Positions 28,921 through 53,511 of a stretch of DNA of 64,000 nucleotides are shown in pieces; position 1 is the stretch's first letter, and each line of letters opens with the position of its first letter. The notes beneath the pieces were generated by a model. The model searched no databases, was not told the origin of the DNA, and was given only the letters and a program-made list of their open reading frames with translations. The position numbers and the translations under genes were made by a program. This DNA comes from Mytilus trossulus (Eukaryota), in the NCBI RefSeq assembly GCF_036588685.1, contig NC_086377.1, positions 5,084,001 through 5,148,000 on the forward strand, given 5' to 3'.

Positions 28921-31900
28921 TACGGAAGCCGATAAGGGCCATTCAAAAAAAAAAATTATGTCGTAATTACGACATAGCATGTCGTAATTTCGACATAACA
29001 TGTCGTTATTACGACATCGCTATGTCGTAATTTCGACATAACATGTCGTTACAACGACATCGCTATGTCGTAATTTCGACATATCATGTCGTAATAACGA
29101 CATCACTAAGTCGTTATAACGACATCGCTATGTCGTAATAACGACATCGCTATATATAAAACAATATGTATTATGATTGCCCAGAGACTAAATGACACAG
29201 ATAATATTAACAACTATACGTCATCATAATGCCCCCTATAATTAGAAAAGCCCCCGCAAAGTCAGCTATAAAAGAGGGAGGAAAGATACCAGAGGGAGAG
29301 TCCCCGAAATGCTGTGTGGCAGACAGTGTTATTATTCAATTATTAGCTCCCTTGGTAAAACTCAAAATTTCATATTTAATGCATTTTATTGTTAAATAAT
29401 TTACATGAAGCTTAATAAGTACATATTTGTTAATTGCATAGCTTTTGCTATTTGAATTCATTGGTTAAAGATATTTATTTATATTGTAAAGTTTAATATT
29501 TGCATCGTCGCAAAATCTTTGGATACCTTCTTAGAATACCGTCAGTGAGAAAGTTATATATTTTACAAAAAAACTGAGGTGAATTAATGAACATTAATTA
29601 AACGGCTGTATAGACAGTTGTATGCGAGCCTTACTTGGCAGCTAACCATCCCATCTCCCTCAAAATAAGGGTATACTGCCTGGTTTCTTGTAATGAGGGT
29701 GAATTAAAGTATCAATTGCTCTAATGCTACTTTCAAATGTTGGGCACGATATTCCTTACAACACGTTTCACTTAAAATGCGACGTCGAAGAGGGTCTTTG
29801 ACTTCGATTAATTTTTGCAAGTTTTATTCGGTTTTTTATATTGTTGGTTGATTCTTGTTCTGTTCGTTTTGTGATGTCATTTTATAAAAAAATTACCTCG
29901 AGTTGTGGAAATCGATAAAATAATGTTTACCCTTTAAATTATTTCAACTTAAAATGCAGTACTGTAGGACGGAAAGATGGGACGGAAGTACATGTATACG
30001 GTTTTCATAATTTATTTTTATCATAGGATGTTTAACTTTCAAGTTGCACATCATCTGTCATTGTAAAATTTCTATATCTTAATTTATCCCCAATACAAAT
30101 ATATCTGACACTCTGCAAGTAAATCGAACATTTTTACCCTTGGTTAAATTTGAATAGAATTGTATTTTCCCTGACACATAAGTTGTCGAAATACACCCCT
30201 TCAATTACTTGAACCTTGGCTTGAGATTTATTTTCCCAAGTCATCTTCAGATATATACATTTTAAAATATAGTAATCTACTCCTGGGTCGTCCGCGTAAA
30301 CGGCAAACAAAAATATAATCCCGGTTTGTTTTTATAATTCGATGAAACGGTTTTCGTTGCTGTTTGGGATTCGTCTTTCAATTACCTCCATTTCATGCAC
30401 AAGTTTACATTGATGAAAAGTTCCGGCTTCGCTAGTACAGGAATTACTTTCATCACGAAATAGCAGGACAAATCGCGAAGTAAAACATTCCGTTAACTGG
30501 TATTAAGTGTTTTGATATTGGTGATTGCACCTAACTGAAGTGACGACTTTAAATGATCTATTTCGGAGTACTTCCGTAACATAAATTTCAATTTATTTTA
30601 TAAAATGGAATTTCCCCCCCCCCCCCCCCCCCCCCTGTTCCAAATTCTTTTAAATAAATCGTCAAAAGCTATACAATTAATAAAAATTGCAAAATTTAAC
30701 CTGTGTCAAACCTATTTCCCCGGGCGCCGGGAGTCTTTAGCAACATGCACTATTTTTTTTTCGGCAGCAATCATTAACATCTTTCTCCAAATTTCATAAC
30801 ACGATTTGTTTTAATTACCGTAAACATTTAATTGATACTTTAGCACATTTAACGTCGGAAATTAGCGTCTTTAGGATTTTAGACGTTTTCAGACATTTGG
30901 AAAAATTGGCTACCGTTTTGTAATGTATGGAAGCATTTTATTCCTTTAAGACTCAAATATGTAGTTAATAAGGAAAGAATCTTGGCATTTTTTACTCTTC
31001 GTATATCTAACTTTTGTTTTGATCAATTATAAAAAAAAAAATACGCCTTAACTGCTTTGAGGCAAATATTTGTACTTTTGTTAGATATTATTATTGTCTT
31101 ACTATTTTTATTCATTTTCTACTATAATATGCAGTCGAGTCAAATGAAATTTGGTAAAATAACGGTTTTAACGCCACAAAGAACCGACATATGTCGTTGT
31201 TCCTGTCAAAAATCAAGAAGATCACAGAATAAGAAATAGGATCACTATACATAACAGTTAAAACAGTTTTTCATAAATGTAACGTTGGATGGGGACATCC
31301 GTTTTTTTTCACATAGCTTTCTTTTTTTAATCCTCAAATACACTAAATATTAATTAGGAGATGATCAAGAGCTATAAAAACATAATTCAAAACATATATT
31401 GAATTTGTTTTAATATTGGTTCGTATTTTCTAACATTTTTATTATGTTTTGCGGATGAAATTTCGAAGATTCTGTTTTAAATCCTAGGGGTTGTAAGAAC
31501 ATCGCGCGTGCCCAACGTTTGAAAGTAGAAATAGAGCTATCTATACTTCAATACCCCCTTATACGAAGAAGCCATGCAGTTTGCGCTTATTTAAAGGGAG
31601 ATGGAAAGCTTGGCTTGACTTGGTTGTACAATTTCAGTCCTCTAATAATTCCACATTTTATTCTTACTGCATAGCTGTTCTACGACCGGTAGCTTGATAA
31701 TCTAAACGACTTTGTCTGACTGTACAGCCCTAACACTATGGGCCATGTTAATTGATATTGGTATATATAACATATATAAGTTTCTCACTGAAGGTATCCA
31801 AAGAAGGTAACCAAAGATTTTGCGACGATGCAAATATTAAACTTTACAATATAAATAAATTATCTTTAACCAATGAACTCAAATAGCAAAAGCTATGCAA

Positions 31901-32341
31901 TTAACAAATATTTACTTATTAAGCTTCATGTAAATTATCTAACAATATAATACATTAAATATGAAATTTTGAGTTTTACCAAGGGAGCTAATAATTGAAT
32001 AATAACACTGTCTGCCACACAGCATTTCGGGGACTCTCCCTCTGGTAGCTTTCCTTTTATAGCTGACCATGCGGGGACTTTTATAATTATCGGGGACATT
32101 ATGATGACGTATAATTGTTAAATTCTTTGTCATTTAGTCTCTTGCAAATCATAATACATATTCTTTTAAATATAGCGATGTCGTTATTACGACATAATAT
32201 GTCGAAGTTACGACATAGCAATGTCGTTGTAACGACATGTTATGTCGAAATTACGACATAGCGATGTCGTAATAACGACATGTTATGTCGAAATTACGAC
32301 ATAATTTTATTTTTTTTGAATGGCCCTTATCGGCTTCCGTA
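28921..32341. mobile_element. 3.4-kb non-autonomous DNA transposon with ~600-bp TIRs, IS3EU-like
   Basis: Ends tacggaagccgataagggccattc / gaatggcccttatcggcttccgta; 6-bp TSD AAAAAG (28915-28920, 32342-32347); empty site in copy 1 near 6670-6677; no transposase ORF. Confidence 0.85.
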
Positions 32342-32569
32342 AAAAAGCGTTCGGACTCGAACTATTTAAAAAAAAATATGCATTTTCGTCAGTATAATAA
32401 TGATTACATAGATTATTACTACACGCAATCAAACTAACTTTACATTGCAGTATTCCTACCATAATAATTAAGAGTGCATTTCTTTCTAATCAAAATTTTG
32501 TGAACGTTGTTTTGCGTTTTTACTCGTTTGCTAAACGCTACAAAAGCAGAAACAAATACATCTTTTAAT

Positions 32570-33182
32570 AAATGTTTTGATCATTTCTTTTTAACCCAAA
32601 CGATGCAAACGGCTAAGCGCGCACATATATTGATAATTTCTTTCTAACACAAACGATGCAAACGGCTAAGCGCGCAGATGTTTTGATCATTTCTTTCTAA
32701 CACAAACGATGCAAACGGCTAAGCGCGCAGATATTTTGATCATTTCTTTCTAACACAAACGATGCAAACGGCTAAGCGCGCACATGTTTTGAATCGTTTG
32801 ATTTTTTTTTAAACACAAACGATGCAAACGGCTAAGCGCGCACATGTTTTGATCATTTCTTTCTAACATAAACGATGCAAACGGCTAAGCGCGCACATGT
32901 TTTGATCATTTATTTTTAACACAAACGATGCAAACGGCTAAGCGTGCACATGTTTTGATCATTTCTTTCCAAGACATACGATGCAAACCGATAAGCGTGC
33001 ACATGTTTTGATCATTTATTTTTAACACAAACGATGCAAACGGCTAAGCGTGCACATGTTTTGATCATTTCTTTCCAAGACATACGATGCAAACCGATAA
33101 GCGTGCACATGTTTTGATCATTTCTTTCCAACACAAACGATGCAAACGGCTAAGCGTGCACATGTTTTGATAATTTCTTTCA
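32570..33182. repeat. 53-bp tandem repeat (~11 units)
   Basis: Same unit as 6900-7897. Confidence 0.95.
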
Positions 33183-34625
33183 AGTATTGTGACAGTTTGT
33201 ATTATTTTCGTTTTTATTTATTTTATTAAAAAAGTTTGAATTTTGAAGTTTATAGGTGTCAGTCGATCCCGGCCTGCCTCATCATCGGCAACAAAGCCAG
33301 GCATTGTACACGACTAGTTCCCCCACAAAATGTAAGATTCCAGACTCGGCTCTCACAGATGTAGTTCATATTTCGAGAGGCCGAGAGAAAAGAGCAACAA
33401 GAAGAACAAACTACAGTACAGAAATAACACCTTCTATTTTTTTGTTATTTATATAATACAAGCATACGTTTGCAAAGTTTACATAAACTTTGACAAACGA
33501 TGCAAACGATAAAAAATGCGTCTGCAGTGTGTCGTTTGTTAAACGATGTATTTGTTTCTACTTTTGTAGCGTTTAGAAAGCAACAACAAACGCGACACAA
33601 CGTTTTCAAAATTTTGGTTAGAAAGATATGAGACCTGTATTTCATATGTATGAAAAGGTGTAGCCTATGATTAAGATTATTACTTACAGTGTTTTGGGAT
33701 TTTTGCTTATACTGTTGATAACAATAAAATTAACGGTACCAATTTTCCTGCACCAGATGCGCATTTCGACAATACATGTCTATTTAGTGATGCTCGTGGT
33801 CGAAATATTTGAAATCCAAAGCTTAAATAAAAGATAACCACGGGGACCGAGAACACAGTTATTTCGTATTGCATTTCTTTTTGATAATAAATTCAAATAA
33901 AAAAAAACAAACCATCGAAATTGCACTATCTCAAAAAGAACTTCAGAGTGTAGTGTACTACTATTTGGAAATATAAAATCAAAGTTATAGAAAGGTCTAC
34001 CAGCTCTAACTCAAAATACTGACAATTCTGTGTTAACGGGTCTAAAATTTATTTTGAAATATTCAGACATACTAATTTGACCAAATCACTACTTGAAAGA
34101 AAGATTCAGCACCCAATTAAAAAAAATGTAATTTCATAATATTAATATTTCATGCATAAAAAAATAAAGTTGGAAAGTGTTTGAAAATAATATACAAGAT
34201 ATACACTGTTTTCACTAGGGACTAAGTGACGATATATGTGTCCTTGTGGTAACTCTCTGTATCATTGTTATACGATGATAACGGCTGTACACATATTTTG
34301 ACTATTCTATTAATTGTGTCTGTTTAGTTAACACATCAATGTAAATATAACGGAATTTAATGAGATTGTCATCAAAGTGAGAGGGTTAGCGCTATAAAAC
34401 CAGGTTTAATTCACCACTTTTTACATTTGAAAATGCCTGTACCATTTCAGGAATATGACAGTTCTTGTCCATTCGTTTTTATGCGTTTTGTTATTTGATT
34501 TTGCCATGTGATTATGGACTTTCCGAATTGATTTTCATCTAAGTTCAGTATTTTTGTGATTTTACTTTTTTCTGTTCCAATAACTATACTGTGTTATTAT
34601 CATGCCCATCAATAATAAATATATG

Positions 34626-35861
34626 TTAATGAATTTTGAATATAGATAAACACGAATATCCTACATGAATATAAATATCAGTAACAGCATGTATATCTAT
34701 GGTATCACGCAAGCTTAAAGAAACAACGGCTGAACCTGTACCGGTATGATGATTTTCGATTTGGTCACCAGAAAAGCGTGGCACTATACGCACATAAACT
34801 AAAGTGTTTTTGTTTTTCCTGATTTGATATTCTGCATCAGATAAATGGGTCATTATGCTAGCAATGATCAGGTATAGTCCAGGTTTCTCACATGTAAACT
34901 TTCCATTGGTTTGTAAGGTGGATAACGTATTGATTCCGTATGATGATCTGATGTTAGGAAATCTGATCACTGAATTGTTGTTATAGCGGTCACCAGTAGC
35001 GCACGCAGTAACGGCAACTGTAAAAGAGAAAATAAGATACATATAGCTAACAAATAGTATTTAAATATAGTAATGTGATAATGACCTGTAATCTTGTTTT
35101 TTTTTTAGGAATAATTCAACAGTATGTAATAATGCTGTATTTTGATTGGACGAGAGACCAGTTTCCCCCAGTAATTTCTATAAATTGAGAATTTCTTTTC
35201 TCTGCCGGTGTATCTGTCATTAAGAAATTTGAAGTTTGAATATTAAGACTACTGCCAGCAGCCGGTTGGATATTAAATCGTGTGAATATCGAAAAACGAA
35301 AATCGAACTTGCCGCTTACTTCACATGGCTGCATGCTTCTATTTGAAAATAAATCACAGACTTATCAAAAAACATTATGAACATATCAATTTCGTGAGTC
35401 TAACGCTCATTCAAAAAGAAGTCTTAATTAACTTATCATAATAATTATCTACCTTGCTCACTTTCCTTTGTCTGTTTATCTTCCAAGACCATTATGTCAT
35501 TTTTAATTCTATTTAACATTGTCATGGTTATCTTAGACGAATAATTTCTGTAGTAAGAACAACAATTTTCGAACTGTGTAGATTTTGATTGAACTGTATG
35601 TAGCTCTGAACGCAATATTTCAAAGTCCTTCAGAATGATAGGTATTTTAGATGTAATATTGGTAAGTTTTTTCACTTCCATTTCAAGTTGTCCAATATTT
35701 TGTATAATTTGTTTTTGTTCTTTTCTTTCCTCTATGATGATATCAAAGAGCGCATTGTAACGGCTATTTGTTATTTCACTATTTAAGGAGCCAGGCGTTG
35801 TCAGTTCAAAAAGAAACCCGAATATTGTAGGAAGAAGAAACAGCCAAATTACTCCCACCAT
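34626..35861 (-). CDS. Secreted C1q-domain-containing protein (C1qDC), 2 exons, 266 aa
   Basis: Exon 1 35453-35861 (signal peptide and coiled-coil, phase-1 GTAGAT donor). Exon 2 34626-35017 (gC1q: VIRFPNI..GKFTCEKPGLY..HTGTGSAVVSL..SCLSIFKI). Confidence 0.9.
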
Positions 35862-36297
35862 AATTTATATTTTTTTCACATGAAGTCGAACGGTGTCGGA
35901 GAAGCTTTTGGTACTTAAAACATCTACGATGTTTGAATGTTATCTATAAGTACCCACCTTTTGGCAAAACACCCAAATTGCATGGAGCTTATATAATGTG
36001 TTGATAAAATAAACTCTTCAACATGTTCAAATATAGATATTTGACTTCATCAAAAGACACGTGCATTTAATCATCTTTAATAGTGAACAAGGCAGGTATA
36101 CCATAAATAAAAACAACCAACATTTTTCATAGCAAACGACGTGAATTAGAACTGAAAACACTACAATGTTAAAAATTGTAAAAATTAAAACATGTTAAAT
36201 GGCAGACAATGACTTGCAATTGATATGACTTATTAACGACTAAAATGAAAACGGGGAATAGGTCAAGGAGACACAACCCGTCCAAAGAGATGATAAC

Positions 36298-36499
36298 TGA
36301 AGTACCTCAGGGTCATTGGTGGTGCTCCACATTGGAGGCAGATCCGGAAGACGAGAGAGCCTCGTTTCGGATCTGCCGGCAGTCGAAAACCTAGAAGCAG
36401 AAGCCAAAGCACGCTGATTCTAGCCGACCCAGAGAATAATTAGATAACCGTCTAACTGTACTTGCAAGATAGCCAGGGTAAGTTTTGAGAAAGCTTACA
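36298..36499 (+). repeat. 5' LTR (202 bp)
   Basis: Identical to 45801-46002 except base 3 (TGA vs TGT). Confidence 0.97.
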
Positions 36500-36500
36500 T

Positions 36501-36514
36501 TGGCGCTGCGAGCA
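36501..36514 (+). promoter_or_regulatory. Primer-binding site, probably tRNA-Ser
   Basis: TGGCGCTGCGAGCA, 1 nt after the 5' LTR; complementary to a tRNA 3' end ...TGCTCGCAGCG-CCA resembling tRNA-Ser(CGA/TGA). Confidence 0.75.
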
Positions 36515-37185
36515 TTCGTTTTCGAACAAATTCACTCGGGGAGTTGAATTCTACATCGAAATTGCAAATTTCAAGGGGCCAAAACAGCACCTCCATTTTG
36601 TTTTTAGGGATCCCTGACAGGTCACCTATTTTCAGTTTTCGCTAACCATAGCTTTGCTAGGTTAGTTTTATCGGGAGGGAAAAGTTAAAGCACCGGGAAG
36701 GGAACCTTGTGTGGCTAAGTTTCAGTCACCGTTTGTTATTTTTGAGGGATTTTTTCATACTTGGCCGTTTGCGGAGCCCTTGTAGGAACAAGTGTGAACC
36801 CCTTACTCGTTCTGCAAAACCCTTGTAGGGAATTTTGTAAACCCCAATCCAGTTCCGCCGCGTATTGCACTCAATTGACCTACGCAGCTCAACTTCCATT
36901 TGCAACCATAATTTGCAAATCTTCCGGTTGTAAACAGAAAGAAGAAATTGTAAGTGTCAAATTAAAGCAAAAAAACACATTGCACATACACCTGCCATTG
37001 TATATACACTCCTCTGGGGTCAACTTATAAGCTTGATCCCCAGTTAAAAAAAGTTGTTATATTAAAACCATACAAAACAGTCAAATATTATAAATACCCC
37101 TTTCCAGTGGATACCCCTGCCAAATCCCTAAACTAAACCTAAATTGTTTATTGTTTAATTATTGTGTTCCCATTCAAGTGTGACC

Positions 37186-38916
37186 ATGGCTAGAGTCCAC
37201 ATAAACTCTGCCACTTTTGAGGAATTGTTATCAATTCCAGGGGTAGGGGCTAAAATTGCCGCAAAAATTTGGGAATTGAGGGAGGATAAAGGAATTCTGG
37301 AGTTGGAGGACCTACGGGAGGTTCCTTATATGAGAATAACGGAGGCAGCTCTAGAATCTATGGATTTTAGTACCTCCCTGCCACCCAACAGGGGGTCTAA
37401 TAAATTTTGCAAAGAGGAGATAGGGCATCAAGAGAAGGTGCAAAGGATTGATAGCCTCATACAGGCCAGGGGTAGGGGGCAAACAGAGTATCCCAGTCAA
37501 TCAGTAGAAACACCCAGAGCCAGGGAGTCCGTGTCCACATCTCCATCCCAACACATCAATTTCCAAGATGGTGGGGAACTTAACCGGGGTTTCAGGGAAG
37601 ACATGGGGACCCACCAGGACCGATGGGACAGGCCCATGGGTGCTTATGGGGGTCCAAGAGATTACAAGTATGAAGGGGAAACACCTCGGTCTAGATATAA
37701 CAATGCCGGAGATACAGGAAGGGGAAGAGGGGGTTTTCAAAACCAGTTTATTGATAATGAGGGTCCAAGGCTCAGAGATGCCCAGCCGGAGAGCGAGGCT
37801 CCGGCATCAAGGCACGCCAGTAGCATGGGGTACCCCACAGGGTCAGGGGAACCCAGACGGGGATATGGGGACCAGAGAAGCTCTCGTCGGGATGCATATG
37901 ACCACCAGGGGAACATGGGAGGGTCAGATAACCAAAGACAGAGGGGGTCTATGGGGGTTAGACCTCCCATCCTACAAAAGAGCTTAAAGTATGATGGGAA
38001 AACTAATTGGCAGGCTTTCTATGCCAAATTTTCCCGATTATGCCAGGTTAGTGGGTGGTCTTCAGGGGAGTGCAAGGATCAATTGTGCTGGTCCCTTGAT
38101 GGGAAACCCAGTGAGTTTTATGCCTTGCTCGTGGAAAGAAGGCATGACTTGTCTTATGAAGACTTGGTGAGTAAGTTGGCCAAACGATTTGGGTTCAATG
38201 AGTTGCCAGAAACAGCCCAAGTCCAATTTAACATTGCCAGGCAGGGTGGGGATGAAACCTTAGAGGACTGGGCCGACAGGGTCCAATCACTCGCCACAAA
38301 AGCCTTCCGTCACCTTCCTGAAGATCACATGTACCAGCAAGCCATCATGAGATTGTGTCAGGGGGCCTCAGATAAGGAGAGGGGAATGTTGGCCTCCAAT
38401 GCCAAACCAAAGAGTATTGAGGAGGCAGTGGATAAAATTCGTATGCACCAACATAACCACCAGGCCATATATGACCGTAGTGCCAGAAAAGAAGTAAAAA
38501 GTGTAAGTCCTGAGATCCGAAGCCGGGGTGGGGATCACTATACTGTCTGTTCCACATCAGGACCAGTCCCCAATAATGCTCCTTCCAAAATTATCCCCAA
38601 AGAACATTCTCCTAAAGATGTCCAGGATTTGAAGGACCAATTTCATGCCTTCAAGGGGGAGGTAAGTGGGACTCTGGGCAATATCATGTCTGAAATACAA
38701 AAGCTATCTTTTGCTGTCCGCAATAATGCTAGGCCCCCATCCAGAAGCCCCTCTCCTCGTGCCGGTGGTTGTTTCCATTGCGGGGAGGCAGGCCACTTTA
38801 AAAGGGAATGCCCAAAGTTTCAAAGGTCTAATTCTCCTCGACCTGGGGGAAAAAAGGTAACCTTCCAGGACAACAAGGGTCCGTTAAACTCCAACGGGTC
38901 GACTCAAGAGGTCTGA
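37186..38916 (+). CDS. gag: Gag with N-terminal helix-hairpin-helix, capsid-like domain and CCHC zinc knuckle
   Basis: ACCATGG Kozak start; VHINSATFEELLSIPGVGAKIAAKIWELRE (ComEA-type HhH); YDGKTNWQAF..RQGGDETLEDW; CFHCGEAGHFKREC at 38770-38811. Confidence 0.92.
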   Translation: MARVHINSATFEELLSIPGVGAKIAAKIWELREDKGILELEDLREVPYMRITEAALESMDFSTSLPPNRGSNKFCKEEIGHQEKVQRIDSLIQARGRGQTEYPSQSVETPRARESVSTSPSQHINFQDGGELNRGFREDMGTHQDRWDRPMGAYGGPRDYKYEGETPRSRYNNAGDTGRGRGGFQNQFIDNEGPRLRDAQPESEAPASRHASSMGYPTGSGEPRRGYGDQRSSRRDAYDHQGNMGGSDNQRQRGSMGVRPPILQKSLKYDGKTNWQAFYAKFSRLCQVSGWSSGECKDQLCWSLDGKPSEFYALLVERRHDLSYEDLVSKLAKRFGFNELPETAQVQFNIARQGGDETLEDWADRVQSLATKAFRHLPEDHMYQQAIMRLCQGASDKERGMLASNAKPKSIEEAVDKIRMHQHNHQAIYDRSARKEVKSVSPEIRSRGGDHYTVCSTSGPVPNNAPSKIIPKEHSPKDVQDLKDQFHAFKGEVSGTLGNIMSEIQKLSFAVRNNARPPSRSPSPRAGGCFHCGEAGHFKRECPKFQRSNSPRPGGKKVTFQDNKGPLNSNGSTQEV

Positions 38917-38951
38917 GTCTGGCCCCTAAACCACGGAGTATAAAGGACCTC
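38883..38951 (+). promoter_or_regulatory. Putative -1 ribosomal frameshift signal (slippery heptamer plus H-type pseudoknot)
   Basis: G TTA AAC, 6-nt spacer, stem GGGTCGACTCA/TGAGTCTGGCCC, loop GAGGTC pairing with GACCTC (38946-38951). Pol is in the -1 frame and open from the heptamer. Confidence 0.75.
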
Positions 38952-41900
38952 ATGATAAGCCATAACCCACCTTACTTAACTAAGGAGGGTACTATCAGTC
39001 AAATAGAAATGATACCGGAGGAAATAATTTCCCCACTTGTGCAGGAATGCCTAGAGGAACCGTCCCATTCCGAGGAACTAGGGGTCATTAAATCACTACC
39101 TCCTGTCCCACCAGACCCCACGTCCACCAAGGAGAAAGACATAGCTCAAACAGCAAAACTAATAGAGGGGCCTAAGAGGGAACCCATCAATCTCATAGTC
39201 CCGGACATGTCTGAATCGGGGTCACAAGACGAAGAGTCGGGGGAGGAAGGGGAACAAACACTGTGTGATAGCTCAAACAGTGATGGGGAGGGGGACTTAG
39301 TGACAGAGGGGGAAAAAGAAATGATAACCATAAGTCAGTTAACGGGGGGTACTATGTATCGGGTGCCTGTGGTAGTCCAGGGTCACAGGGTCGACGCTGT
39401 TGTAGACACAGCAGCTCAGGTTACCCTAATATCCGAGGAAACGTACAAAAGTTTAAAGGAGCTCGAGCCACCTCCTATTCTTAAGGAAGTGGTGATGAAC
39501 ACTGCAGGAAAGGGCCTACAAATGAATGGGTTTGTTGCTGGGCCTTTTTATATTAAGTTGGGGAACCAAGATTTCACATGGGACATATATGTAGCACCAA
39601 TTGGAGATCAGATGCTTTTGGGAATAGACTTCTTAAGGAAGCAGGGCATATCGCTCGACTTGCATAGGAATCAATTGTCCATTCACGGGGAGGTCATCCA
39701 AATGTCATGGGGTCAGGCCAGTTCATTGCCCCAAACAACTGAGGTACGGGCAGGAAAGAATCACACAGTCCCAGCCAATTCAGTTCAAAGAGTCATGGGA
39801 GTGTTAGCCAAACCCATGGGTCGAGAATACATCATTGAGGCAAAGGCTGAGGGCTGTTTGCTCATACCCAGAACCTTACATGATGTAGGTCAAGATCCGG
39901 TGTTGTGTCTGATAAACCTCACCGATAGTCCCCTGGTGATCTCAAAAGGGGATCTACTAGCCCAAGCTCAGGAAGTCGACATGGGGGAACCCCCGGGCCC
40001 TAAAGTGTGCAAGATGGGGGTTGCTGGAGAGGTTAAGGAAAAATTGTTGCCCCAACACTTACAAGAGATGTTCACCAGGTCCTGTGAGGATTTGTCTAAG
40101 GGGGAGGAGGAGACCTTGTGTTCCCTGTTACAGGAATTTCAGGATGTCTTTGCTAGCAGTGACTTAGATCTGGGCCATTTCACGGCCTTGGAACATGGCA
40201 TTGACACCGGGAATCACCCCCCCCCCCCCATTAAACAGCGAATGCGGCGCACCCCCTTAGGTTTTGCCCAAGAAGAGGAGGCTCATTTGGAAAAAAATTT
40301 ACAATCTGGGGTAATTCAGCCATCCGTATCGGAGTGGGCTTCTGCCCCAGTCCTCATACGGAAAAGGGATGGTAGCGTTAGGTGGTGCGTGGACTATAGG
40401 AGGGTCAATGGGGCCTGTTCCCGCCAAATCTTTGCACTCCCCTTAGAAGAAGAGTGCCTAGACACCCTAGCAGGAAATGTGTGGTACTCCAAGCTGGATG
40501 CCAATTCGGCGTATTGGCAAGTCAAAATAAAAGAGGATGACCGGCCAAAAACGGCTTTTATCACCAAATATGGGCTGTTTGAGTTTGCACGCATGGCTTT
40601 CGGGCTATGCAATGCCCCAGCCACATACGCCCGGGTCATAAGCCTTGTACTCCGGGGGTTAATATGGCGGGTAGTGTTGGCTTTTTTGGATGACATATTA
40701 GTCTTGGGAAGGGATTTTGGGGACCACTTGGCAAACCTGAGGGTAGTATTTGAAAGGTTTAGGACGTACGGGCTCAAACTAAAACCCAGGAAGTGTGATT
40801 TATTTAGGAAAAAGGAAGAATTTTTAGGGAGGGTGGTAGGTCCCGAAGGGATGGAAATTGGGCCGGGATATGTAAAAGATGTAAAAAACTGGCCAAAACC
40901 CCGGAACTCAAAGGAAGTAGAACGGTTTTTGGGATTCGCAAACTATCACAGGGCCTTTATAAAAGACTATACTAATATAGCCTTACCCCTTCAAGCCTTA
41001 ACCGGAAAACGCCCCTATTTCTGGGGAAACGAGCAACAACAGTCTTTCGATAGACTCAGGGAAGCCATGGTGTCAGCCCCTGTTTTGTCATTACCCAATG
41101 CCACTGATCCCTTTATCTTAGACACGGATGCTTCCGACAAGGCTATTGGGGCAGAATTATTGCAGGTCCAGGGGGGACAGGAACGGGCCACGTCCTATGC
41201 TAGCTTTACCCTTACCCCAGAACAGCAGAAATATTGTACTACCCGAAAGGAGCTGTTAGCCATTGTCAGGTTCACCAGGCTATTCAGACATTACTTGCTT
41301 GGGCGGAGGTTTACGGTTCGAACAGATCATAGTAGTTGGTTAACGAATTTCAAGGAACCCCAGGGACAATTAGCCCGGTGGCTGGAAGAAATCAGTCAGT
41401 TTGATATGGAAATCAAACACCGGCCAGGGGCTAAACATCCTAATGCAGACGCTTTGTCTCGATTGCCTCAATATGGACCGTGTCCCGAGTTTCAAGTAGA
41501 CAAGGTTCTAGCCAATTTGCCCTGTGGGGGATGTACCTACTGTGCCCGAGCTCAACAAAATTGGGGACAGTTCACGGAAAATGTTGATGATACCATACCC
41601 TTGGCAAAGAGACCCTATGGTAGTACACAACCCAAAGACACACGAGAACCAGTGGTGCAAATATCCCGGGTGTCTGTGTCAAAGAGGGGGGACGAATTAG
41701 CCATATGGTCAAAGGGGGAGGGTGACATCTGGGTGCAGGAAGTAGGAGGGGACCTAGGGGTCAACTTGGGCTACAGTCAGGAAGAGTTAAAAGAAAACCA
41801 AAGTAAGGACCCAGACTTAAAATGGGTGGTTCAATGGAGGAAAACAAAAGGGGAACCCTCTGAGGAGGAAATCTTCCTCAGCGGTCCCGCCTCCAAGTAC

Positions 41901-43292
41901 TACTGGTTAAATCGGGAATTATTTGTCCTTAGTGGGGATGGTGTACTGTACAGGAAGGGGGTGAAAGGAGAGGCAGATAGGGTGGTCATTCCCCAAGTAT
42001 CAAGGAAGGAACTCATGGAGTTGTGTCACGATATTCCTGCAGCGGGCCACCAAGGGGGGGACCGAACCTACCAAAGGATCAAGCCAAGGTATTATTGGAG
42101 AGGGATGAAGAAAGAGATTGAACAGTATGTAGCAAGTTGTGCTTTGTGTAGCCAAAACAAAAAGGCTACTCGCCCAAACCGTCACCCTATGGTGAAACAT
42201 CACGCCGGGGCACCAATGGAAAGGGTTCATCTAGATTTTGTGGGGCCCCTCCCAAAAACAGAAAGGGGAAATGAACATATCCTCATGATGATCGATCAGT
42301 TTACCAAATGGGTGGAATGTGTCCCTCTCCCCGCCTAGGGCGCAGAACTAACAGCCCGCACGGCAGTGAATGAGTTCTTCTCCCGTTTCGGGAGTCCCTT
42401 TCAGGTATTCACTGATCAGGGGAGGAACTTTGAATCCCATCTGTTTAAAGCCATGTGTGACCTGCTTCAAATACACAAAAGTAGAACCACCCCATACCGC
42501 CCCTCCTCCAATGGTCAAGTAGAGCGTTGCAATCGAACGCTGATGGCTTCAGTGCGGTGCTTTGTGGGAAAAAATCAAAAGTCCTGGGATCTATTCCTTC
42601 CGCAATTAGCTGGTGCGTTCCGTGCTTCAGTCAGTAGAAGCACCGGGTTTACTCCTAATCATCTCATGTTGGGCAGAGAAGTCAATCAACCTGCTGAGTT
42701 GATGTTCAGGGGGCCACAGGGGGAGGAAATTCAGGATAGAGAAAAATATGTTTCAGACTTAGAGGAGGCCATCCAAGGGGCACACGAGCTGGCCAGGGCC
42801 AACCTAAAAACGGCACAAGAACGCCTCAAAAGGGATTACGATCTCAAGGTGGTAGTCAAAAGGTTTAAGGTGGGGGATCTAGTGTACCAATTGGACACGG
42901 CCACCATCAAGGGAAAATGTCGGAAACTGACACCATCTTGGAAGGGCCCTGGGGTGGTGGTGGAAAGTCTCACTCCATATCTTTACAGGGTCAAAATGAA
43001 AACAGCAATGGTGGTGGCCCATCATGACCGGATTAAGTTGTGTAAAGATAGGGAGGTCCCAAATTGGTGTAAAAAACTACAAGCCCAAGTTTTAAGTAGA
43101 AATTGGAAGGAAATAGAGGAGTTGGAACCCAAGGGAAAAAGGGGAAAAAACATTTATTGCTCATACCGGGGACCAGAGGATGGGGGTCTCATGATTAGAT
43201 GTGACGAGTGCAGGGAATGGTTCCATGGACGATGCGTGGACATCACTCCTGAGGAGGCGGACAGAATGGACGCTTATCAGTGTCCTGGATGT
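38883..43292 (+). CDS. pol: Pol polyprotein (protease, RT, RNase H, integrase, C-terminal PHD); interrupted by an in-frame TAG at 42336-42338
   Basis: DTAA protease (39405), FLDD RT (40683), DTDAS..TDH RNase H, HHCC and D-D-E integrase, WKGP motif, PHD at 43155-43292. The frame resumes directly after the stop. Confidence 0.93.
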
Positions 43293-43355
43293 TCGGTCTC
43301 CACAGAGGTGCACGTGTCCAGGATCTCCCTGCACTCTAAGGTAAATCTATTTCAG

Positions 43356-45394
43356 ATGAATAACAACACCAACAGTATTGACAAAACAGGGGATGGAAGC
43401 CAGCCACCTTCTCCAGAGCAGGCCTCCGTCACAGAGGTGACGGAGGAACTGGTAGTGTGTGTGTCGGAGGAGGAGCTGAGGCAGCTGGACCCTGAGGTCC
43501 AGGGGAGCCCAGGGGCTGCCTTAGAGGTATGTGGGGGGTCCGAAGGGGGGTCTGAAGGGGTTGAGGGGAAGGGGGAGGTGAAGAAGACCAAGAAGAAGAG
43601 GAAGTCGAGGAGCAACAAGAAGAGCAGAGCTGCCAAGAAGAAGGCCACGGCAGCAACCTCACCTCTCCTGACAACCTCACCTCAGGGGGTGGCTCAGGGT
43701 CAGGAGGTGTGTCGGGGCCAGTCTGGCTCCCCAGCTTCCGGTGAGGTGGCAACACCTCACTATGGAGTTCAGGGTGAAGCAGTTGGTACTGGACTGTCTT
43801 GTCCAGTTTCTGGCTGTGAAACCCGGGGACCAGGCCTGGAAGGGCACATTCTCGCGGAGCACGTGGCCGAGGTGTTCCGTGACCTGGTAGTCTCCGACCC
43901 AGGGTTAGCCCGGGTGCGTCTCACATCGCTGAGCACACTCTTCAGGGCCCTGGGGGGGGCTGCTGTTGGGGACCCCATCCATTGGGTGATAAGCCAGCTG
44001 GAGACTGTGGGGCTGACTCCAGAGGACTTGACCGCTGAGTGGGGAGCCATGGCAGCAGTGTGCCAATTGGCGCGATGGGAGGTTCCGCGAACCTTTACAC
44101 TGTCACCAATAAACTCACCTGCAGTCCTTATGCATTGGAGGGCGCAGGTGGAGTTGATGGCTTTACTACAGGAACATCAGCGTCAGGCCTTTCTGGGGAA
44201 GGTTAACCTTAGCTCCAGTGAGCCGTCCCAGGCGAGCTCTTCTAGTGAGCAGGGGAGTCCACCAGCCAAGGCAGGAGTTTTTAGCCGGCTGGGGGCTCCG
44301 GTTTGCACACAGGGGACTCCCAGGCCCATGGGGCAGGTTGGGGCGTTCAGTTCCACGGGGCCCTCTCCCAGGTCCATTCCCTCCCTCATGTCCCTCCCCA
44401 CCCGGCCTGTACCCTCCCTCATGTCTCTTCCACGTCCTGGTCCCAGCAGGTCACTTCCAAGTCTAGGGTCAAGAGGCTCATCCTCATCTGTGGGGGCACA
44501 GGGATCAAAGTACCCGGGGAATCCCTCAGGGAGTAGGGGAGTGGAGTCTCAATTGTGCAGGGATCTTCCGGAGGCATTTGACAGCCATATGCATCTGGAT
44601 AGGTCCCTGACCAAGATGGGGCTGCCTCCTCGGACATCTCTGGGTGATTTCCTAAGGGTGCGGTTGGACCCTGCCCCTGTGGATCCAGTCAAGCTGGCTG
44701 GAGGGGTTGCAGTTTTCTGCAACCCGAAGACTTGGCCCAGTGTGCCTTTGAGGCTGGAGCCAGGGTGGGTTGGAGCAGTGGGAATCCACCCAAAGAGTGC
44801 TGGGCAGTTTGAGGACGCCGTTTAGCACCGGTTCCACCAACTGGTGTCGCACCCAAGTGTGTCCGCCCTTGGAGAGGTGGGAGTGGATTACACTGTGGAG
44901 GAAAAACTACACGCCCGGCAGATATCGACCTTGCGATGGGCACTCCAGTCCTGCCGCTTTGACCAGCCTGTGGTCTTGCACATTCGGGGTGGCAAACTGG
45001 ATAGGGTTCACGCCCGAGCCCATCGCGAGGTCTTAGAGGTTCTGAAGAGTGTGGTAGTCAATCCGCTGCAGTTAATTCATCTCCACTGTTTCCAGGGGGG
45101 ATTGCTCAGGTGCGGGAGTGGCAAGACTCATACCGCAACGCTTATTTTGGGTTTGGTATGGGTGTCAGGTCCTTTAACTCTGAGCAGAAGGAGGCCTTGA
45201 GGTCGGTGCCCCCATACAGGATTCTCTTGGAGAGTGATGCCCCTTACTTCCCCCCACCAAATGCACGGCATGGCCACCCTCATTAACTTTATGAGGTGGC
45301 AAAGGTGGTGGGGACAGTGAGGGCAGAATCACCGAGGGAAATTGTACGGGTGGCCCACCTCAATGGTAGCCGTCTGTACGGAGTTAACCCGTAG
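43356..45394 (+). pseudogene. tatD: Env-position ORF in frame with pol: basic NLS, C2H2-like finger, TatD-family nuclease domain (44571-45394); disrupted in this copy
   Basis: DSHMHL, AVGIHP, ALGEVGVDY, PVVLHIRG, HLHCF, YFGFG, RILLESDAPY, GHP..LYEVAKVV..NGSRLY. Lesions: TAG 44823, 1-bp loss in the G-run 45095-45100, TAA 45284. Confidence 0.88.
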
Positions 45395-45786
45395 GTGGGC
45401 AACTCCCAACATGTACATAGCAACAGAAAGGCCCGTTGGCCAGTTACAATTGTTAGAGAAATTAGTTATAGCCAGTTGGCTTCCAATAAATGAATTTACA
45501 GCCCGTTGGCTCCTAAATTAACCATAGTTATAGCCAGTTGGCTCTTAGTAATGAATTTGAGGGCCCGTTGGCCAAAAGGGGAGGATGTATATATGCGTAA
45601 TCCTGGGGTGTGTGTCATGGGGATCCCGAGGGTGAGGGGAATGGGGGGTGACCAACTGTAGTTCAGTCTCCATAGGGCATGGGTGGGGGCGGGTTTACTG
45701 TGTTTCTGATCCTGTTTTTGGTATATTCCCTACTGATTTCCCTAGCATGATCTTTTGTTTTTACCCGGGGGTTACTCCTTTTGTAC

Positions 45787-45800
45787 AAAGTTGGGGGGAG
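45787..45800 (+). promoter_or_regulatory. Polypurine tract
   Basis: aaagttggggggag immediately before the 3' LTR. Confidence 0.85.
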
Positions 45801-46002
45801 TGTAGTACCTCAGGGTCATTGGTGGTGCTCCACATTGGAGGCAGATCCGGAAGACGAGAGAGCCTCGTTTCGGATCTGCCGGCAGTCGAAAACCTAGAAG
45901 CAGAAGCCAAAGCACGCTGATTCTAGCCGACCCAGAGAATAATTAGATAACCGTCTAACTGTACTTGCAAGATAGCCAGGGTAAGTTTTGAGAAAGCTTA
46001 CA
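45801..46002 (+). repeat. 3' LTR (202 bp)
   Basis: TGTAGTACC...AAGCTTACA followed by the TAAC TSD. Confidence 0.97.
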
Positions 46003-46659
46003 TAACAGTCGTATAACATCAATGGGTGTTCAACGCAGCGAGAAAATCCTATATACTCAGCGGTTGGTATCAGCTTAATAAAACTGTGTACTTTTTCAAT
46101 GAAAACAGACGTCATACTAAACTTAAAACCATATAAATGAACTTAAATTACAATTCATACAAGAATATCAAAGACAAAAGGCTCCTGACCTGGACAGGTG
46201 CACAACGCTGTGGGGTTAAACAATTCTGTAAGATACCCTTTTTGATAGCAACAAGTGGTGCCTGTGTTAGGACTGGAACGGCGTGTGGTCACAACGACCT
46301 GATACCAGAAATGAGGTTGTAGAAATCTAAATACTATTATTCCGAAACAATATAGTAATGAAATTAAAACAATATAAAGAAATATGCACAGGCACTTGTT
46401 TATATCCATAGAAAGGTCGACTATCCATATAGATAGAAGTACACGTATGTGGCTAACGGAATTGATTTAAGGTCACGACCGTCTCCGCTTCGGACTCATT
46501 TTGTACCCTTTAAGTTAAAGCAAAAATCTGTACATTATATGAATCGAAAAATTGAATATTCACCTTCAACACAGTTCATATGGTTATGTTCATTTTAATT
46601 TGCAATGAAAGATGTAGATTTTGGTGTAAAAAAAATATTTTATAAACAATCTGTATATT

Positions 46660-48907: not shown

Positions 48908-51900
48908 TTAATCAATTTTGATGATAGACAAACACGAATATTTCCCATAAATGTAGCTATTGGTGACCACATGTATTTCTAAAATATCATGTCTATTCAA
49001 ATTGTCAACAGCTGATCCTGTCCCGGTATATTGTTGTTGAGGACCACTAGAATAGTCTGGTACTATACGGACGTTAACCAAAGCATTTCCATTTTTTCTT
49101 ATTTGATAAGCTGCATTAGGTGAATGGGAGGTTATGCTAGCAACGATGAGGTATAATCCAAACTGATCACATGTAAATTCTCCACGAGTTTTAAAAGGAA
49201 CTACACTAACGACTCCATGTGAGGTTTTGAAGTCCGGAAATTTAACTGCTCTATTATTGTAATTGTATCCACCATCAGTACACGCAGTCAAATAAACTGT
49301 AACAGAAAAAAAACTCAATACTACACAATCAGCAACAAATATAATTTATAGATCATAAATTGCTAAACTGACGATAACATAAATAAATGGTTCGCATATT
49401 AAGATTGAACGGACTTCTTTTGGTCGGAATTATTTGACACTAGTTATATAGAGACTTGTACAATCAAACTCAGGAGAGCAAAGACCATTCCAATCCGATT
49501 AAATAGATCTACGAAGAGATGATATATTTCCTTTGGCACCATCTTACGGTGTTTATATTTCACAACTAGTTCACTATTCCCGTGTCTGTTTTGACGTTTT
49601 GATTTTAACGAACGTATTCTATGTATTAATGGTAAATTATTAAGCCAGGGAATTCATTACCACAAATTACTCAAAACCTAAACTAAGTTATTCCATAGAT
49701 ACACAGATTTGGTATAGAAGTGTGGTTGTACCTGTAAAAACTTATTTCAAACGGGATAACACATCCTCATTTTTACGGAAATGTAGATGCATGATTTTTT
49801 TATTAGTTGTTAGTGGCTTTGAACTAGATGTTAGTAACTGCGAGAACTCTCAGATCATTACTTATTGTCTTTTTGTTGTTGGGATATACAAGTATCCGGC
49901 CACGTCTACTCTGTATTTTTGTTAGATGTATTTCTATTTGTATCTATCTAATGAGTTTTTTTCAACTGATTTTGATAGTTCGTTCTTATGTTGTACTGTT
50001 ACACCACTGTCCCAGGTTAGGGGAGGGTTGAGATCCCGCTAAAATGTTTAAACCCGCCACATCTGTATATATGTGCCTGTCCATAGTCAGGAGCCTGTAA
50101 TTCAGTGGTTGTCGTCGTGATGTGTTACAAATTGATTTTTCGTTAATTGTTTTTTACATAAATTAGGCCGTTAGTTTTCTCGTTTGAATTGTATTACATT
50201 TGTCATTTCGAAACCTTTTATAGCTGACTATATTTATGAGGTATCGGCTTTGCAAACTGTTGAATACCGTACGACGACCTATAGTTGTTAATTTCTGTGT
50301 CATTTGGTCTCTTGTGGAGAGTTGTTTCATTGGCAATCATACCACATCTTTTTTTTTTTTATATATATTAGCTCTATTCAAGTAAAAGTACTGGTGTATA
50401 TCTACAATAACGGATGAATTATGTTTACGGAAACAACCTATGTGTCTTTTGTCTTTATACAAATTATATTGCTCCATTGGTGTTTACATGAATATTGAAA
50501 TTGACCCCTTCTCAGAAATTAATTTGAAACATCATTAACACCACTATCACCATTACATGAATAAAACAAATTGTTTATTTTGATTTTATTAATACAAATA
50601 ATTGAAGGGTATACGAGGAGTATGTGGCATGGCATAAATTATTCTTAAACAATTGCATCCCAGTATCAAAATCATATGAAAAATATACTTTCATTAATTC
50701 TTAAAATAAACTGAAAATAAAGGTTAATTTCGAATTCAAAAAAAAATTTGTATACACAGACAGTCGTTTTCTCTTTTGATTAGTACAAATCTCAACTGTC
50801 AGCTGAGGAAAATTCATTTCATACCATACAGTTAAGGTTGTGCTCGTTATTAAAGACCGTGAATTAATCGTGATTTGTAATTAATCAAATATGTGTCCTC
50901 TGCTCTTTAATTGATTGTTCTTTGAATGGCGATTATACAACACCTCTTTATTTTCATAGCGTGATGGGGTTCATTATAACAATATACTAATTTGGAATGT
51001 TAATTTATGTATGTTTTTAGTGCTAAATAATTAAAAAAAGGGCTAAGGAAGAAATAAATAGATTCAAACCAAAAATATTAACGTGTATATTTTCATTAAA
51101 ATGTTCTTTAATTACAAAACTTATTAAACACACATATATTTTCATGAATACCAATGTCCTAAATTAGAAAAAAAATCACTTACTTCTTAAGAACAAAATA
51201 ATATGCATTATGTATGTAGGACTCGGATGTGCGATGGGGACACTGAATTATGATTGTCCGTTTGATCATGTGCGATGGTCTATTTGACGCATGATGACTA
51301 GTTTAAAATCGACAAAATTATGTGCAATTTTTATGAGATTGTATTTTGGTCATGTTGGTATCTATGTATGATTGTAAGTTTATAAGCCCCTTTAAAACTG
51401 TTCCGATGTTGAATATGCATAAAATATTTTCAACTCGAATTTAAAAATTAGCCATCCATCATTCGGATAATTTTTAAACGATTGTATGAACAGTGGCTTA
51501 TTTTTGTCCAAGCCAATTTACAAAGTACATTACAACGATACAGACATGAATGGTTATTCGATAACTATAAACCAGGACTGATTTAAATTGAAAGGGTAAC
51601 ATTCTCGATGATTAACTTAATAAACATGAAAAGCCGCTTCTAGGAAACAACTTGATCTCATCGTCGACATGTGAACATGTTGGTATGATACGGGTTATGT
51701 TATTCTCATATATCATGTATATTTTATGATTGTATAATACTAAACCGCTAACGGGAGGGATTGTGCTTGATTTTCATATGATGAAGACAAAATCTTTCTA
51801 TCAGTTTAATTGAGGTCTGGAGCTGGCATGTCAGTAACTTCTAGTAGTTCTTTGTTAATTTATGTATCATTGTCATTTTGCTAAGTTTCTTTTGTTACCT

Positions 51901-52836
51901 ATTCTGACATCGGACTCGAACTTCTTTTAAACGGAGTTTTACTGTGCGTATTGGTGTTTGTTTTTCTTCATTGGCTAGAAGTATAGGGGGAGGGTTGAGA
52001 TATCACAAAACATGTTTAACCCCGCAGCATTTGCGCTTGTCCAAAGTCAGGAGCCTCTGGCCTTTGTTAGTCTTTGTTAGTATGATTTTTTTTATTTTAG
52101 TTCATTTATATGTTTTTGAGTTAAGTATGACGTCCATTATCACACGTTTTTGTTTAGTGGCGAGTAGAAGCACATCTCTGGGAGCGGGATTTTCTCGCTG
52201 TGTGGAAAATACATTGATGGCCTTCAGCTGTTTTCTGCTCTTTGGTCAGGTTGTTGTCTCTGTCACATATTCCCCCATTTCTATTCTCAATTTTATGAAA
52301 AGCATTGACATTATAGTTTATGTTCAACGTGACCATCGATGTTTTGAGTACCATCGCAGTCCAGATTCCTTCATATACAGAACCGATAATGAATAAAAAA
52401 AACGCCTTATAATTTGTATGCATGCGAAGCGCTTTTTTTGTGTATCTTCATCACGTACAATGAATTGAATTTATCAAAATAATTACTGACCTTGCCCTCT
52501 TGTACTTGTCAGTTGGTACTGCATACCACTAACGACACCTTTAATTTCACTTTCAGCTATTGAAAAGGCAACAGTTAGATTGTGATAGCGTTCATCAATG
52601 TACTTCTGAATAATAGGTATTTTAGATGTAATATTGGTCAGTTTATTAACCTCTATCTCAAGTTGTCTGATATACTGCTCCATCTGTTTTCGTTCCTTTC
52701 TCTCCTCAGTGATGATATCAAATAGCGCATTGTAATGACTATTTGTTAATCCACCATTTACTGGGCCAGGCGTGGTAATGTCAAAAAGAAACCCAAATGT
52801 TGTAGGAAGAAGGAAAAACCAAATTCTGACCTGCAT
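48908..52836 (-). CDS. Secreted C1qDC protein, 2 exons, 244 aa
   Basis: Exon 1 52491-52836 (signal peptide and coiled-coil, GTCAG donor, phase 1). Exon 2 48908-49296 (gC1q: GEFTCDQFGLY..YTGTGSAV..SCLSIIKI). TATAAATA ~80 bp upstream of the ATG. Confidence 0.88.
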
Positions 52837-53511
52837 ATTTTTTTTTTTTTACATGAAGTCTAACAGTGTGAGAAAAGCTTTTGATACTAGATATCTATTG
52901 TGTTGGAAATTCATATTTATAAGTATCGCCCGTTTTTCAAAATAACAACTATGCATAGATCGTATAAAATGCTTTATAAGATAAGCACTTCTACGTCTTT
53001 AAATGCAGATAGGTGATAATAGGAACAGACATGTCTGATAAATAGGATTTGAAATAATTAAACAGGCGTTATAAACCAGATGCAATTCCCCGACAGAACA
53101 CTGTATGTAAATTTACGCAATAATCTACATGCCTCCGTACCAACGAAGTTTAACAGTGTCAGATAAACTTTTGATACTAAATATCTATAGTGTTAGAAAT
53201 TGATATTGATAAGTATCGCCTGTTGCGACATTTTATCTAATTTATTACGTTTGTTTGGATAATTTTTTATCCTATTAAACATTTTATAAGATCTATGCAA
53301 TGTTGTAAAAATAACAACATTGCATAGATCTTATAAAATGTTTTATATGATAAACACTTCAACATCCTTAAATGCAAATAGGTGATAATTTGAAATGACA
53401 TGTTTAATAAATAGGATTTAAAAATTATACATACAAGCGTAGTAAAATTTCGCAACAAAAACTATTTGTAAATAAACCATCATAGATACCAGGATTGAAA
53501 TGTGAAATTTG

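Follow-up and report, generated by a model that had tools for sequence, protein, structure and literature searches.

In this study, a 64,000-nucleotide stretch of the mussel Mytilus trossulus genome (NCBI RefSeq assembly GCF_036588685.1, contig NC_086377.1, positions 5,084,001 to 5,148,000 of the forward strand; hereafter the window) was analysed, and the element at positions 36298-46002 was found to be a Ty3/Gypsy long terminal repeat (LTR) retrotransposon that is structurally complete, with broken reading frames. Behind gag and pol it carries a third open reading frame (ORF3) in which a zinc-finger/helical domain precedes a TatD nuclease, and we are highly confident that it belongs to a Ty3/Gypsy lineage with a TatD nuclease, apparently of the TATDN2 type, in ORF3. 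We tentatively favour the view, although it falls somewhat short of being probable, that this lineage follows a normal Gypsy cycle and that ORF3 would serve it as a TATDN2-like accessory nuclease for nuclear RNA or R-loops. The features of the element, in window coordinates, are listed below.

36294..36297: target-site duplication (TSD), left copy TAAC; right copy at 46003-46006
36298..36499, + strand: 5' LTR, 202 bp, 201/202 identity with the 3' LTR
36475..36483, + strand: consensus splice-donor-like site AGG/GTAAGT within the 3' portion of the LTR, a putative donor
36501..36514, + strand: primer-binding site (PBS) complementary to tRNA-Ser (CGA/TGA) at its 3' end; host tRNA-Ser gene ends match
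37186..38916, + strand: gag, 576 aa, open
37192..37332, + strand: N-terminal helix-hairpin-helix (HhH) of Gag, ComEA/EEPD1 type (Pfam HHH_3, aa 3-49, E 5.6e-8)
38089..38349, + strand: Gag capsid region (Retrotrans_gag, E 2.2e-5)
38767..38817, + strand: CCHC zinc knuckle of Gag (zf-CCHC, E 5.9e-6)
38832..38916, + strand: gag/pol overlap of 85 nt, with pol in the -1 frame
38847-38853: candidate slippery heptamer for a putative frameshift
38832..43355, + strand: pol, broken by a stop at 42336-42338
~39363-39638, 40356-40829, 41022-41402 and 41988 to ~43040: protease, reverse transcriptase (RT), RNase H and integrase domains of pol (Pfam)
43164..43292, + strand: PHD finger of PHF2/BPTF type at the integrase C-terminus (Pfam, E 3.5e-9)
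43338..43355, + strand: weak splice-acceptor-like site (7/15 pyrimidines) directly 5' of the ORF3 ATG
43356..45394, + strand: ORF3, comprising a disordered basic N-terminus (putative nuclear localisation signal), the zinc-finger/helical domain, a linker and TatD
43800..44213, + strand: helical domain with a C2H2-like zinc finger packed against it (predicted structure)
44571..45391, + strand: class II (HxH) TatD nuclease domain (Pfam, model and Foldseek), putatively TATDN2-type
45787..45800, + strand: purine-rich tract (PPT) directly 5' of the 3' LTR
45801..46002, + strand: 3' LTR, 202 bp, one mismatch against the 5' LTR

Structure and classification of the element

Direct LTRs ending in CA, a tRNA PBS, a PPT and a short TSD were all present, and Pfam placed a Gag with capsid and CCHC knuckle ahead of a pol ordered as protease, RT, RNase H, then integrase. 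Among PDB entries the RT-RNase H region was nearest to Ty3 (E 1e-65), the next match reaching 2.5e-43 and the retroviral ones 6e-26 or weaker. ORF3 is a zinc finger with a TatD TIM barrel and not an envelope glycoprotein of the errantivirus type, and the integrase ends in a PHD finger, with no Pfam match to the chromodomain of chromoviruses. The integrase does not lie upstream of the RT, the order that marks the Gmr1 clade (PMC2774666), and the tRNA-Ser PBS and 202-bp LTRs differ from the tRNA-Lys PBS and LTRs of ~1-2 kb described for the Osvaldo clade in Culex (PMC3286476). According to the same account, a Ser PBS is compatible with the Mag lineage without being diagnostic of it (PMC3286476). 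The element has a GC content of 44-55% and a GC skew of +0.07 to +0.15, against 30-37% GC (~33%) and a skew near 0 in its flanks, and an Rfam search returned 0 matches.

An earlier note on this DNA had described a complete LTR element with nearly identical 202-bp LTRs, and the TSD TAAC, the PBS and the purine tract bear this out; completeness nevertheless applies to the structure and not to the coding sequence, which contains three private stops and a frame change in TatD. The same note called these LTRs very short, but in 15 scored pairs from sister elements the LTRs measure 213-329 bp and are 98-100% identical, with 4-bp TSDs in 12/15, so that the length is normal for the lineage. Since the sister elements show both, short LTRs and recent activity are lineage traits. 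In the same genome, a tandem array (L233, from G000:C8:7773964 onward; unit ~739 bp) in which Ser(CGA) and Ser(TGA) genes alternate gave 391 matches to the tRNA-Ser 3' end, indicating that the primer tRNA of the window family is highly amplified.

ORF3 and its TatD nuclease

Pfam TatD_DNase matched two pieces of the window (E 1.5e-12 and 1.1e-7), and the modelled domain folds as a TatD TIM barrel, as also recognised by Foldseek. Class II TatDs (TATDN2/TATDN3/YcfH/YjjV) are defined by an N-terminal HxH motif (PMC10085689), and the ORF3 TatD is assigned to this class because it carries the HxH motif together with E, H, H, E and D ligands on the barrel. A phmmer search of 1.84 billion representatives yielded 5158 matches; among 158 relatives examined, a near-full TatD is present in 129 and the zinc-finger/helical domain in 109; the latter is found in 61/65 of those with at least 250 residues N-terminal to TatD. 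Across the 129 near-full TatDs the ligands are retained in 94-98% of relatives, both the histidines (H407 118/120, H409 115/121, H538 121/129, H573 121/128) and the acidic residues (E503 122/129, E622 127/129, D624 125/129). The latter three appear to occupy the positions of TATDN2 E593/E705/D707, as mapped via shared E. coli equivalents (PMC10711561). The dN/dS of TatD was 0.14-0.33 in 5/11 pairs (five more were saturated at synonymous sites and one had no synonymous change), and on this codon evidence TatD is shown to be under purifying selection.

The zinc-finger/helical domain was modelled with a pLDDT of 88.5, and its C, C, H and H residues are near-invariant across 68 sequences. It corresponded to no known fold, the best Z being 4.4 and no Foldseek match arising at E<=0.001. 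A BFVD search returned one TatD-like giant-virus protein only, the ESM Atlas gave no match for the zinc-finger domain and generic clusters only for TatD, and searching viral and prokaryotic genome contigs with patterns built on the zinc-finger domain turned up no relative.

In the window copy, the ORF3 Met at 43356 follows the PHD finger in frame with no intervening stop, which corrects the description of the zinc finger and TatD as a separate frame in this family. The junction is open in 8/10 other loci, equivalent to 7/8 distinct copies as two copies were read twice. Such continuity with the integrase-PHD would suit a nuclease that acts on DNA at replication or integration as a part of Pol, trimming cDNA 3' ends or repairing abasic (AP) sites or gaps. 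TATDN1/3 and the E. coli TatDs do combine 3' exonuclease with AP-endonuclease activity (PMC10085689), and the Gag HhH is nearest to the repair nuclease EEPD1. However, families B, C and D have ORF3 as an ORF of its own beyond the pol stop, as do 9/9 sister-clade elements, no long Pol-TatD fusion protein occurred among 8000 database candidates scored (weak evidence), and the kinship of TatD is with an RNA-preferring paralog. We therefore regard a DNA role of this kind as unlikely, though it deserves to be kept in mind.

Host TatD paralogs and inheritance of the nuclease

At least 140 Pfam TatD matches were found in the mussel genome, and those inspected were mostly intronless element copies. 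Three host-type TatD genes were recognised: the first matches TATDN3 (E 3.5e-85), the second has one exon matching TATDN1 (E 3.5e-17), and the third, which contains introns, matches both poorly. Because neither TATDN1 nor TATDN3 fits, the third gene was labelled TATDN2, a label that its motifs also favour. In a TatD tree of 52 rows (24/86 prokaryotic rows sampled; three database proteins without the start motif dropped), a branch supported at 100/98 joined the third host gene to 23 element-type TatDs and to two other TatDs without introns, and excluded the 24 prokaryotic TatDs as well as the host TATDN1- and TATDN3-like genes. Two element TatD groups were each recovered (100/99 and 93/67), and since these are the same two groups that the RT tree yields, TatD has been inherited together with the RT.

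These results leave very little room for TatD being a useless passenger (a transduced host gene), or for the match merely reflecting TatD-like host genes. Several copies are indeed named as ordinary TatD-like genes in RefSeq/GenBank and one subclade dispenses with TatD, yet the domain is intronless, always stands behind an integrase in LTR elements, is multi-copy in clam, scallop and sea urchin, has been co-inherited with the RT across deep divergence and has a dN/dS well below 1. We consider the passenger explanation highly improbable, as the evidence of selection and co-inheritance already refutes most of it.

The TATDN2-type genes L199 (G000:C14:38791933-38795685) and L206 (G000:C22:98064-101840), both without introns, lie outside the Gypsy ORF3 family and pair together in the TatD tree (100/98). 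L199 adjoins an OTU protease ORF (E 2.5e-12) and an RT fragment, so that TatD may be carried by another kind of mobile element as well.

Distribution and co-segregation of the modules in the mussel genome

A DNA search of the genome gave 24 matches at 79-99%, and a protein search that took as query the 675-aa natural ORF3 frame from a truncated copy (P0001) gave 81, of which 20 loci were examined; these are hence selected on TatD. Integrase and PHD lie upstream of the zinc-finger-TatD ORF on the same strand in all 20, across five families, and the HhH was within view in 8/20. In families B and C an HhH was located ~4 kb upstream of the RT. A second sample consisted of 20 elements picked by RT similarity alone, 19 of them usable. 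Seven, at 66-69% RT identity, carry the PHD and a zinc-finger/helical ORF3 and lack TatD (7/7), with the HhH in 6/7. Nine, at 55-57%, have a separate TatD ORF3 of ~490-600 aa (9/9) and no PHD; in this sister clade Pfam PHD was absent from 4/4 Pol ends tested, and HHH_3 was detected in 6/7 Gags, five of them above the cut-off. The remaining three, at ~49%, have neither PHD nor TatD, and the HhH was absent from both Gags tested.

An RT tree of 27 rows from this one genome, with the root assumed on the three ~49% elements, placed 24/27 RTs in the TatD/zinc-finger-ORF3 lineage (100/99). It contains a PHD clade of 15 rows (100/100) and a no-PHD group (82/81), and the TatD-less group (100/100) is nested in the PHD clade beside family D (95/92). 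The simplest history suggested by this topology is that a zinc-finger ORF3 came first, followed by HhH and TatD, then by the PHD, and finally by a single loss of TatD. The three modules are layers and not one unit: an HhH-Gag together with a TatD-bearing ORF3 characterises the broad lineage, and the PHD one subclade of it.

The three modules reported in the earlier note are thus real and occur together, recurring in at least five families and in 20/20 TatD-selected loci. Its wider claims did not survive: the modules do not form one co-segregating toolkit, TatD being missing in 7/7 nested elements and the PHD in 9/9 sisters; the lineage proves old and wide instead of being a single young element; and in place of a repair- or virus-like module there is an ordinary gag-pol core with the nuclease as an accessory ORF in the env position.

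In two of the outgroup elements, L174 and L176, a T-rich spacer is followed by a small ORF3 (242-274 aa) with a C2H2 zinc finger. In the TatD-less subclade (L158-L164), Gag and Pol share a single frame of up to 2395-2548 aa, and the ORF3 C-terminus is a different short domain, ubiquitin-like by eye.

Distribution in other animals

Among 30 representatives whose source was looked up, the named relatives come from the bivalves Mytilus, Ruditapes, Pecten, Ostrea, Pinctada, Argopecten and Mya, from the brachiopod Lingula, and from the sea urchins Diadema, Lytechinus and Strongylocentrotus. The database proteins closest to the window element belong to M. edulis and M. galloprovincialis (96-98%), and the near-identical members found in Mya (13) and Argopecten (5) fit mobile copies. 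A gene model of an S. purpuratus cluster (P0226) has an HhH-capsid Gag (34% to the window Gag) joined directly to the ORF3 Met, which shows HhH-Gag and TatD at one echinoderm locus as predicted in that model. Some matches are labelled as bacterial metagenome-assembled genomes of bivalve symbionts and would represent host contamination; metagenome and viral scans returned ordinary prokaryotic TatDs only.

Proteins of the element have been annotated as host genes (P0012, P0002, P0004), a Pol-PHD fragment as 'nucleosome-remodeling factor subunit BPTF' and ORF3 as 'tatD'. Many 'TatD-like' or 'uncharacterized' gene models of bivalves and sea urchins are probably transposon ORF3s and not host expansions. 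One 510-aa database protein (P0013; 20 members) fuses a NADAR domain to an element-type TatD.

Gag, Pol and the PHD finger

The pol is in the -1 frame and its PHD finger is clear (E 3.5e-9), in agreement with the frameshifted Pol-PHD noted previously. The best PDB matches of this finger are PHF2 (E 2.7e-12) and BPTF (1.4e-11), with PHF8 also among the best. The PHD fingers of PHF2, BPTF and PHF8 are readers of H3K4me3. The Y, M and W of the cage are retained in 7/7 other elements compared, and the second cage tyrosine is mostly absent. The element PHD probably reads H3K4me3 and would bias integration to active chromatin, which makes it a candidate device for active-chromatin targeting.

The Gag HhH is nearest to EEPD1 and ComEA, the top PDB sequence match being human EEPD1 (E 2.8e-8), and would contribute non-specific DNA binding; HHH_3 was present in 11/34 Gag relatives. 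The slippery heptamer is absent from an 85% relative. A stimulatory RNA hairpin for the -1 frameshift was considered and found unsupported, as the downstream fold is not unusual (z -0.5).

Expression of ORF3

By analogy with env and with other ORF3s (PMC5408684), ORF3 would be expressed from a spliced subgenomic RNA. A consensus donor is present in the LTRs of families A and B and in 2/9 sister-clade LTRs (L186, L193), and 10/14 elements have an acceptor-like site no more than 30 nt from the ORF3 ATG, against 73/1851 other ATGs, a contrast inflated because the spacer is T-rich. General in-frame splicing from Gag to ORF3 was also considered and is unsupported, as in-phase gag donors occur in families A and B only among those tested, apart from one far-upstream site.

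These observations bear on whether ORF3 could be a regulator of RNA export or transcription resembling CERV of Cer1, with the zinc finger doing the work, TatD being secondary, and possibly with a spliced Gag-ORF3 fusion as the product. The zinc-finger domain does persist where TatD has been lost, the outgroup elements carry small C2H2-only ORF3s, the sea-urchin model P0226 fuses an HhH-Gag to the ORF3 Met, and CERV itself is a spliced, Gag-linked ORF3 required for genomic RNA export (PMC10309623). Against this, the catalytic residues are retained, which would be needless for a pure scaffold, and the in-phase gag donors are confined to families A and B, plus that one far-upstream site in one element. 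A CERV-like role is accordingly judged improbable.

Proposed role of the nuclease

Under the reading that we tentatively prefer, the element would replicate through tRNA-Ser priming, production of Gag and, through a -1 shift, of Gag-Pol, and integration with a 4-bp TSD. An ancestor of the lineage would have put a host TATDN2-type nuclease behind the zinc-finger/helical domain in the env position. ORF3 would enter the nucleus by means of its basic stretch, at least in the window family, and would act in the manner of TATDN2 on RNA in RNA:DNA hybrids or on structured RNA. The human enzyme TATDN2 has 3' exo- and endonuclease activity on RNA, degrading the RNA strand within R-loops and cutting hairpin RNA (PMC10711561). 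The most likely role would then be the clearing of R-loops, or of hybrids left behind, from the G-rich and G-skewed DNA of the element itself in support of transcription and copying. The zinc-finger domain would be the older and indispensable part of ORF3, probably aiming it at nucleic acid, with TatD as an advantage that one subclade has lost, and the PHD as a later gain that would steer integration toward active chromatin.

The cutting of hairpin RNA by TATDN2 (PMC10711561) would equally serve a factor against silencing or sensing, which destroys piRNA/siRNA precursors, nascent-RNA silencing scaffolds or stray cDNA. DEDDy nucleases have been captured repeatedly in the env position of rotifer LTR elements, and relatives in the piRNA pathway are noted in that account (PMC5408684); the gain and loss of TatD on the RT tree would also suit an arms-race gene. 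The catalytic domain, however, is under strong purifying selection and not rapid adaptation, and we think it unlikely, with a modest chance of being right, that ORF3 works in this way.

Several points weigh against the R-loop nuclease that we prefer. The nuclease activity, its substrate and the ORF3 transcript are all predictions, and other class II TatDs favour DNA (PMC10085689). TatD is dispensable, being missing in 7/7 elements of a young-looking subclade. As to splicing, the acceptor background comparison is biased by base composition, the acceptor of the window itself is below threshold, the LTR donor is limited to some families and missing from most LTRs, and no LTR-to-ORF3 joint was seen in four runs, an uninformative result since these offered contigs only and their RNA status was guessed. 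As to kinship, the TATDN2 label combines exclusion with motif features; the grouping (100/98) was seen via the third host paralog only, in a tree with no named or reference TATDN2 row and with a partial host row of 171 aa.

A more far-reaching scenario is possible though doubtful, namely that an old (several hundred million years) and undescribed Gypsy lineage of marine invertebrates (bivalves, brachiopods and echinoderms) domesticated TATDN2 as a spliced accessory gene, aimed by a zinc-finger domain with a new fold, which clears hybrids or defeats RNA-guided silencing at the element's loci, and that its PHD subclade, having gained an H3K4me3 reader on the integrase, lands at active promoters. 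Through the kinship of the element TatD with a host paralog recently shown to resolve R-loops, a connection of R-loop metabolism with the success of retrotransposons becomes open to testing, and families that carry both TatD and PHD, TatD alone or PHD alone provide natural controls in one genome.

Decay of the window copy and neighbouring features

The window copy is a recent insertion that has since decayed and is now dead. Its three stops, at 42336, 44823 and 45284, are found in none of the other loci covering them (0/8, 0/10 and 0/10), its TatD reading frame shifts near 45.09 kb, and its PHD finger lacks one zinc ligand in comparison with other copies. At 36 (0.39%) of the 9299 positions that at least three other loci cover, this copy has a private difference, and the coding changes comprise 12 synonymous, 19 missense and 3 nonsense changes and 2 indel columns. 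This spectrum, together with the 1/202 LTR difference, fits neutral decay.

The insertion lies upstream of a C1q-domain gene, ~430 bp from its first coding exon (C1q E 7.6e-6), a single anecdote. C1q-domain genes form a cluster here, at 34626-35864 (- strand), with paralogs near 48911-49345, 52486-52848 and 54236. Elsewhere in the window, the sequences at 28958-32324 and 2522-4781 combine long terminal inverted repeats with short tandem units in their interior and are probably non-autonomous DNA transposons. Tandem arrays of 53 bp and 55 bp were observed at 6848-7960, 22928-24215 and 32519-33302, with a segmental duplication at an offset of ~25.6 kb, and RT-like ORF fragments, Penelope-type by eye, at 62998-64000 (- strand).

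Comparison with known systems

Gypsy elements of molluscs have been catalogued as MolGy1-16 (Thomas-Bulle et al. 2018, PMC6238403; PMC8556966), and these share hosts and superfamily with the present lineage. In contrast to our analysis, those studies classified by RT/RNase H only, and the terms 'TatD' and 'PHD' had 0 occurrences in 4/5 of their supplements searched. No description of TatD, TATDN2 or HhH-Gag in LTR retrotransposons was found in the open literature, a scope that leaves out Repbase, Dfam, GyDB and subscription papers. The lineage had been proposed as undescribed, and this stands in so far as no paper lists its modules, but it may fall in one RT-defined MolGy clade and so possibly bear a name already.

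Like human and vertebrate TATDN2, the element protein has a class II HxH site, a long disordered N-terminus, a C-terminal TatD and the catalytic acidic residues (PMC10711561, PMC10085689, PMC12709183). Unlike TATDN2 as described there, the element TatDs are intronless, multi-copy and located inside LTR elements, have the added zinc-finger/helical domain and are predicted nucleases. CERV of the Caenorhabditis element Cer1 is, on the published description, without a nuclease and without homology outside nematodes, and the comparison implies no likeness of sequence (PMC10309623). TatD represents a new enzyme class among the few known accessory genes of LTR retrotransposons.

Compared with other elements that carry chromatin readers, the mussel lineage is distinguished by a PHD of PHF2/BPTF type on a Gypsy integrase, a predicted reader of an active mark. 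Arthropod Copia elements reportedly use an MBD as chromatin reader. The chromodomain at the integrase C-terminus of chromoviruses (PMC2774666) is likewise a reader appended to the integrase, and Ginger1 transposases also have an appended PHD (PMC2836005). Enzymatic ORF3s and integrase chromatin readers are thus both known designs (PMC5408684, PMC5718144, PMC2774666, PMC2836005).

The closest parallel in design is provided by the Juno/Vesta LTR elements of bdelloid rotifers, in which a Gypsy-like gag-pol is followed, in the env position, by an ORF3 encoding an enzyme whose catalytic site is intact, either a DEDDy exonuclease or a GDSL esterase (Rodriguez, Kenefick, Arkhipova 2017, PMC5408684). 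As far as that account goes, they also resemble the mussel lineage in the family-specific gains and losses of ORF3 and in an ORF3 presumed to be on spliced RNA (PMC5408684). Relative to the elements so described, the mussel lineage has a TIM-barrel TatD in place of the RNase H-fold DEDDy of rotifers, and adds a conserved fusion with the zinc-finger/helical domain, a spread over many families in bivalves, in a brachiopod and in sea urchins, an HhH-Gag and a PHD subclade.

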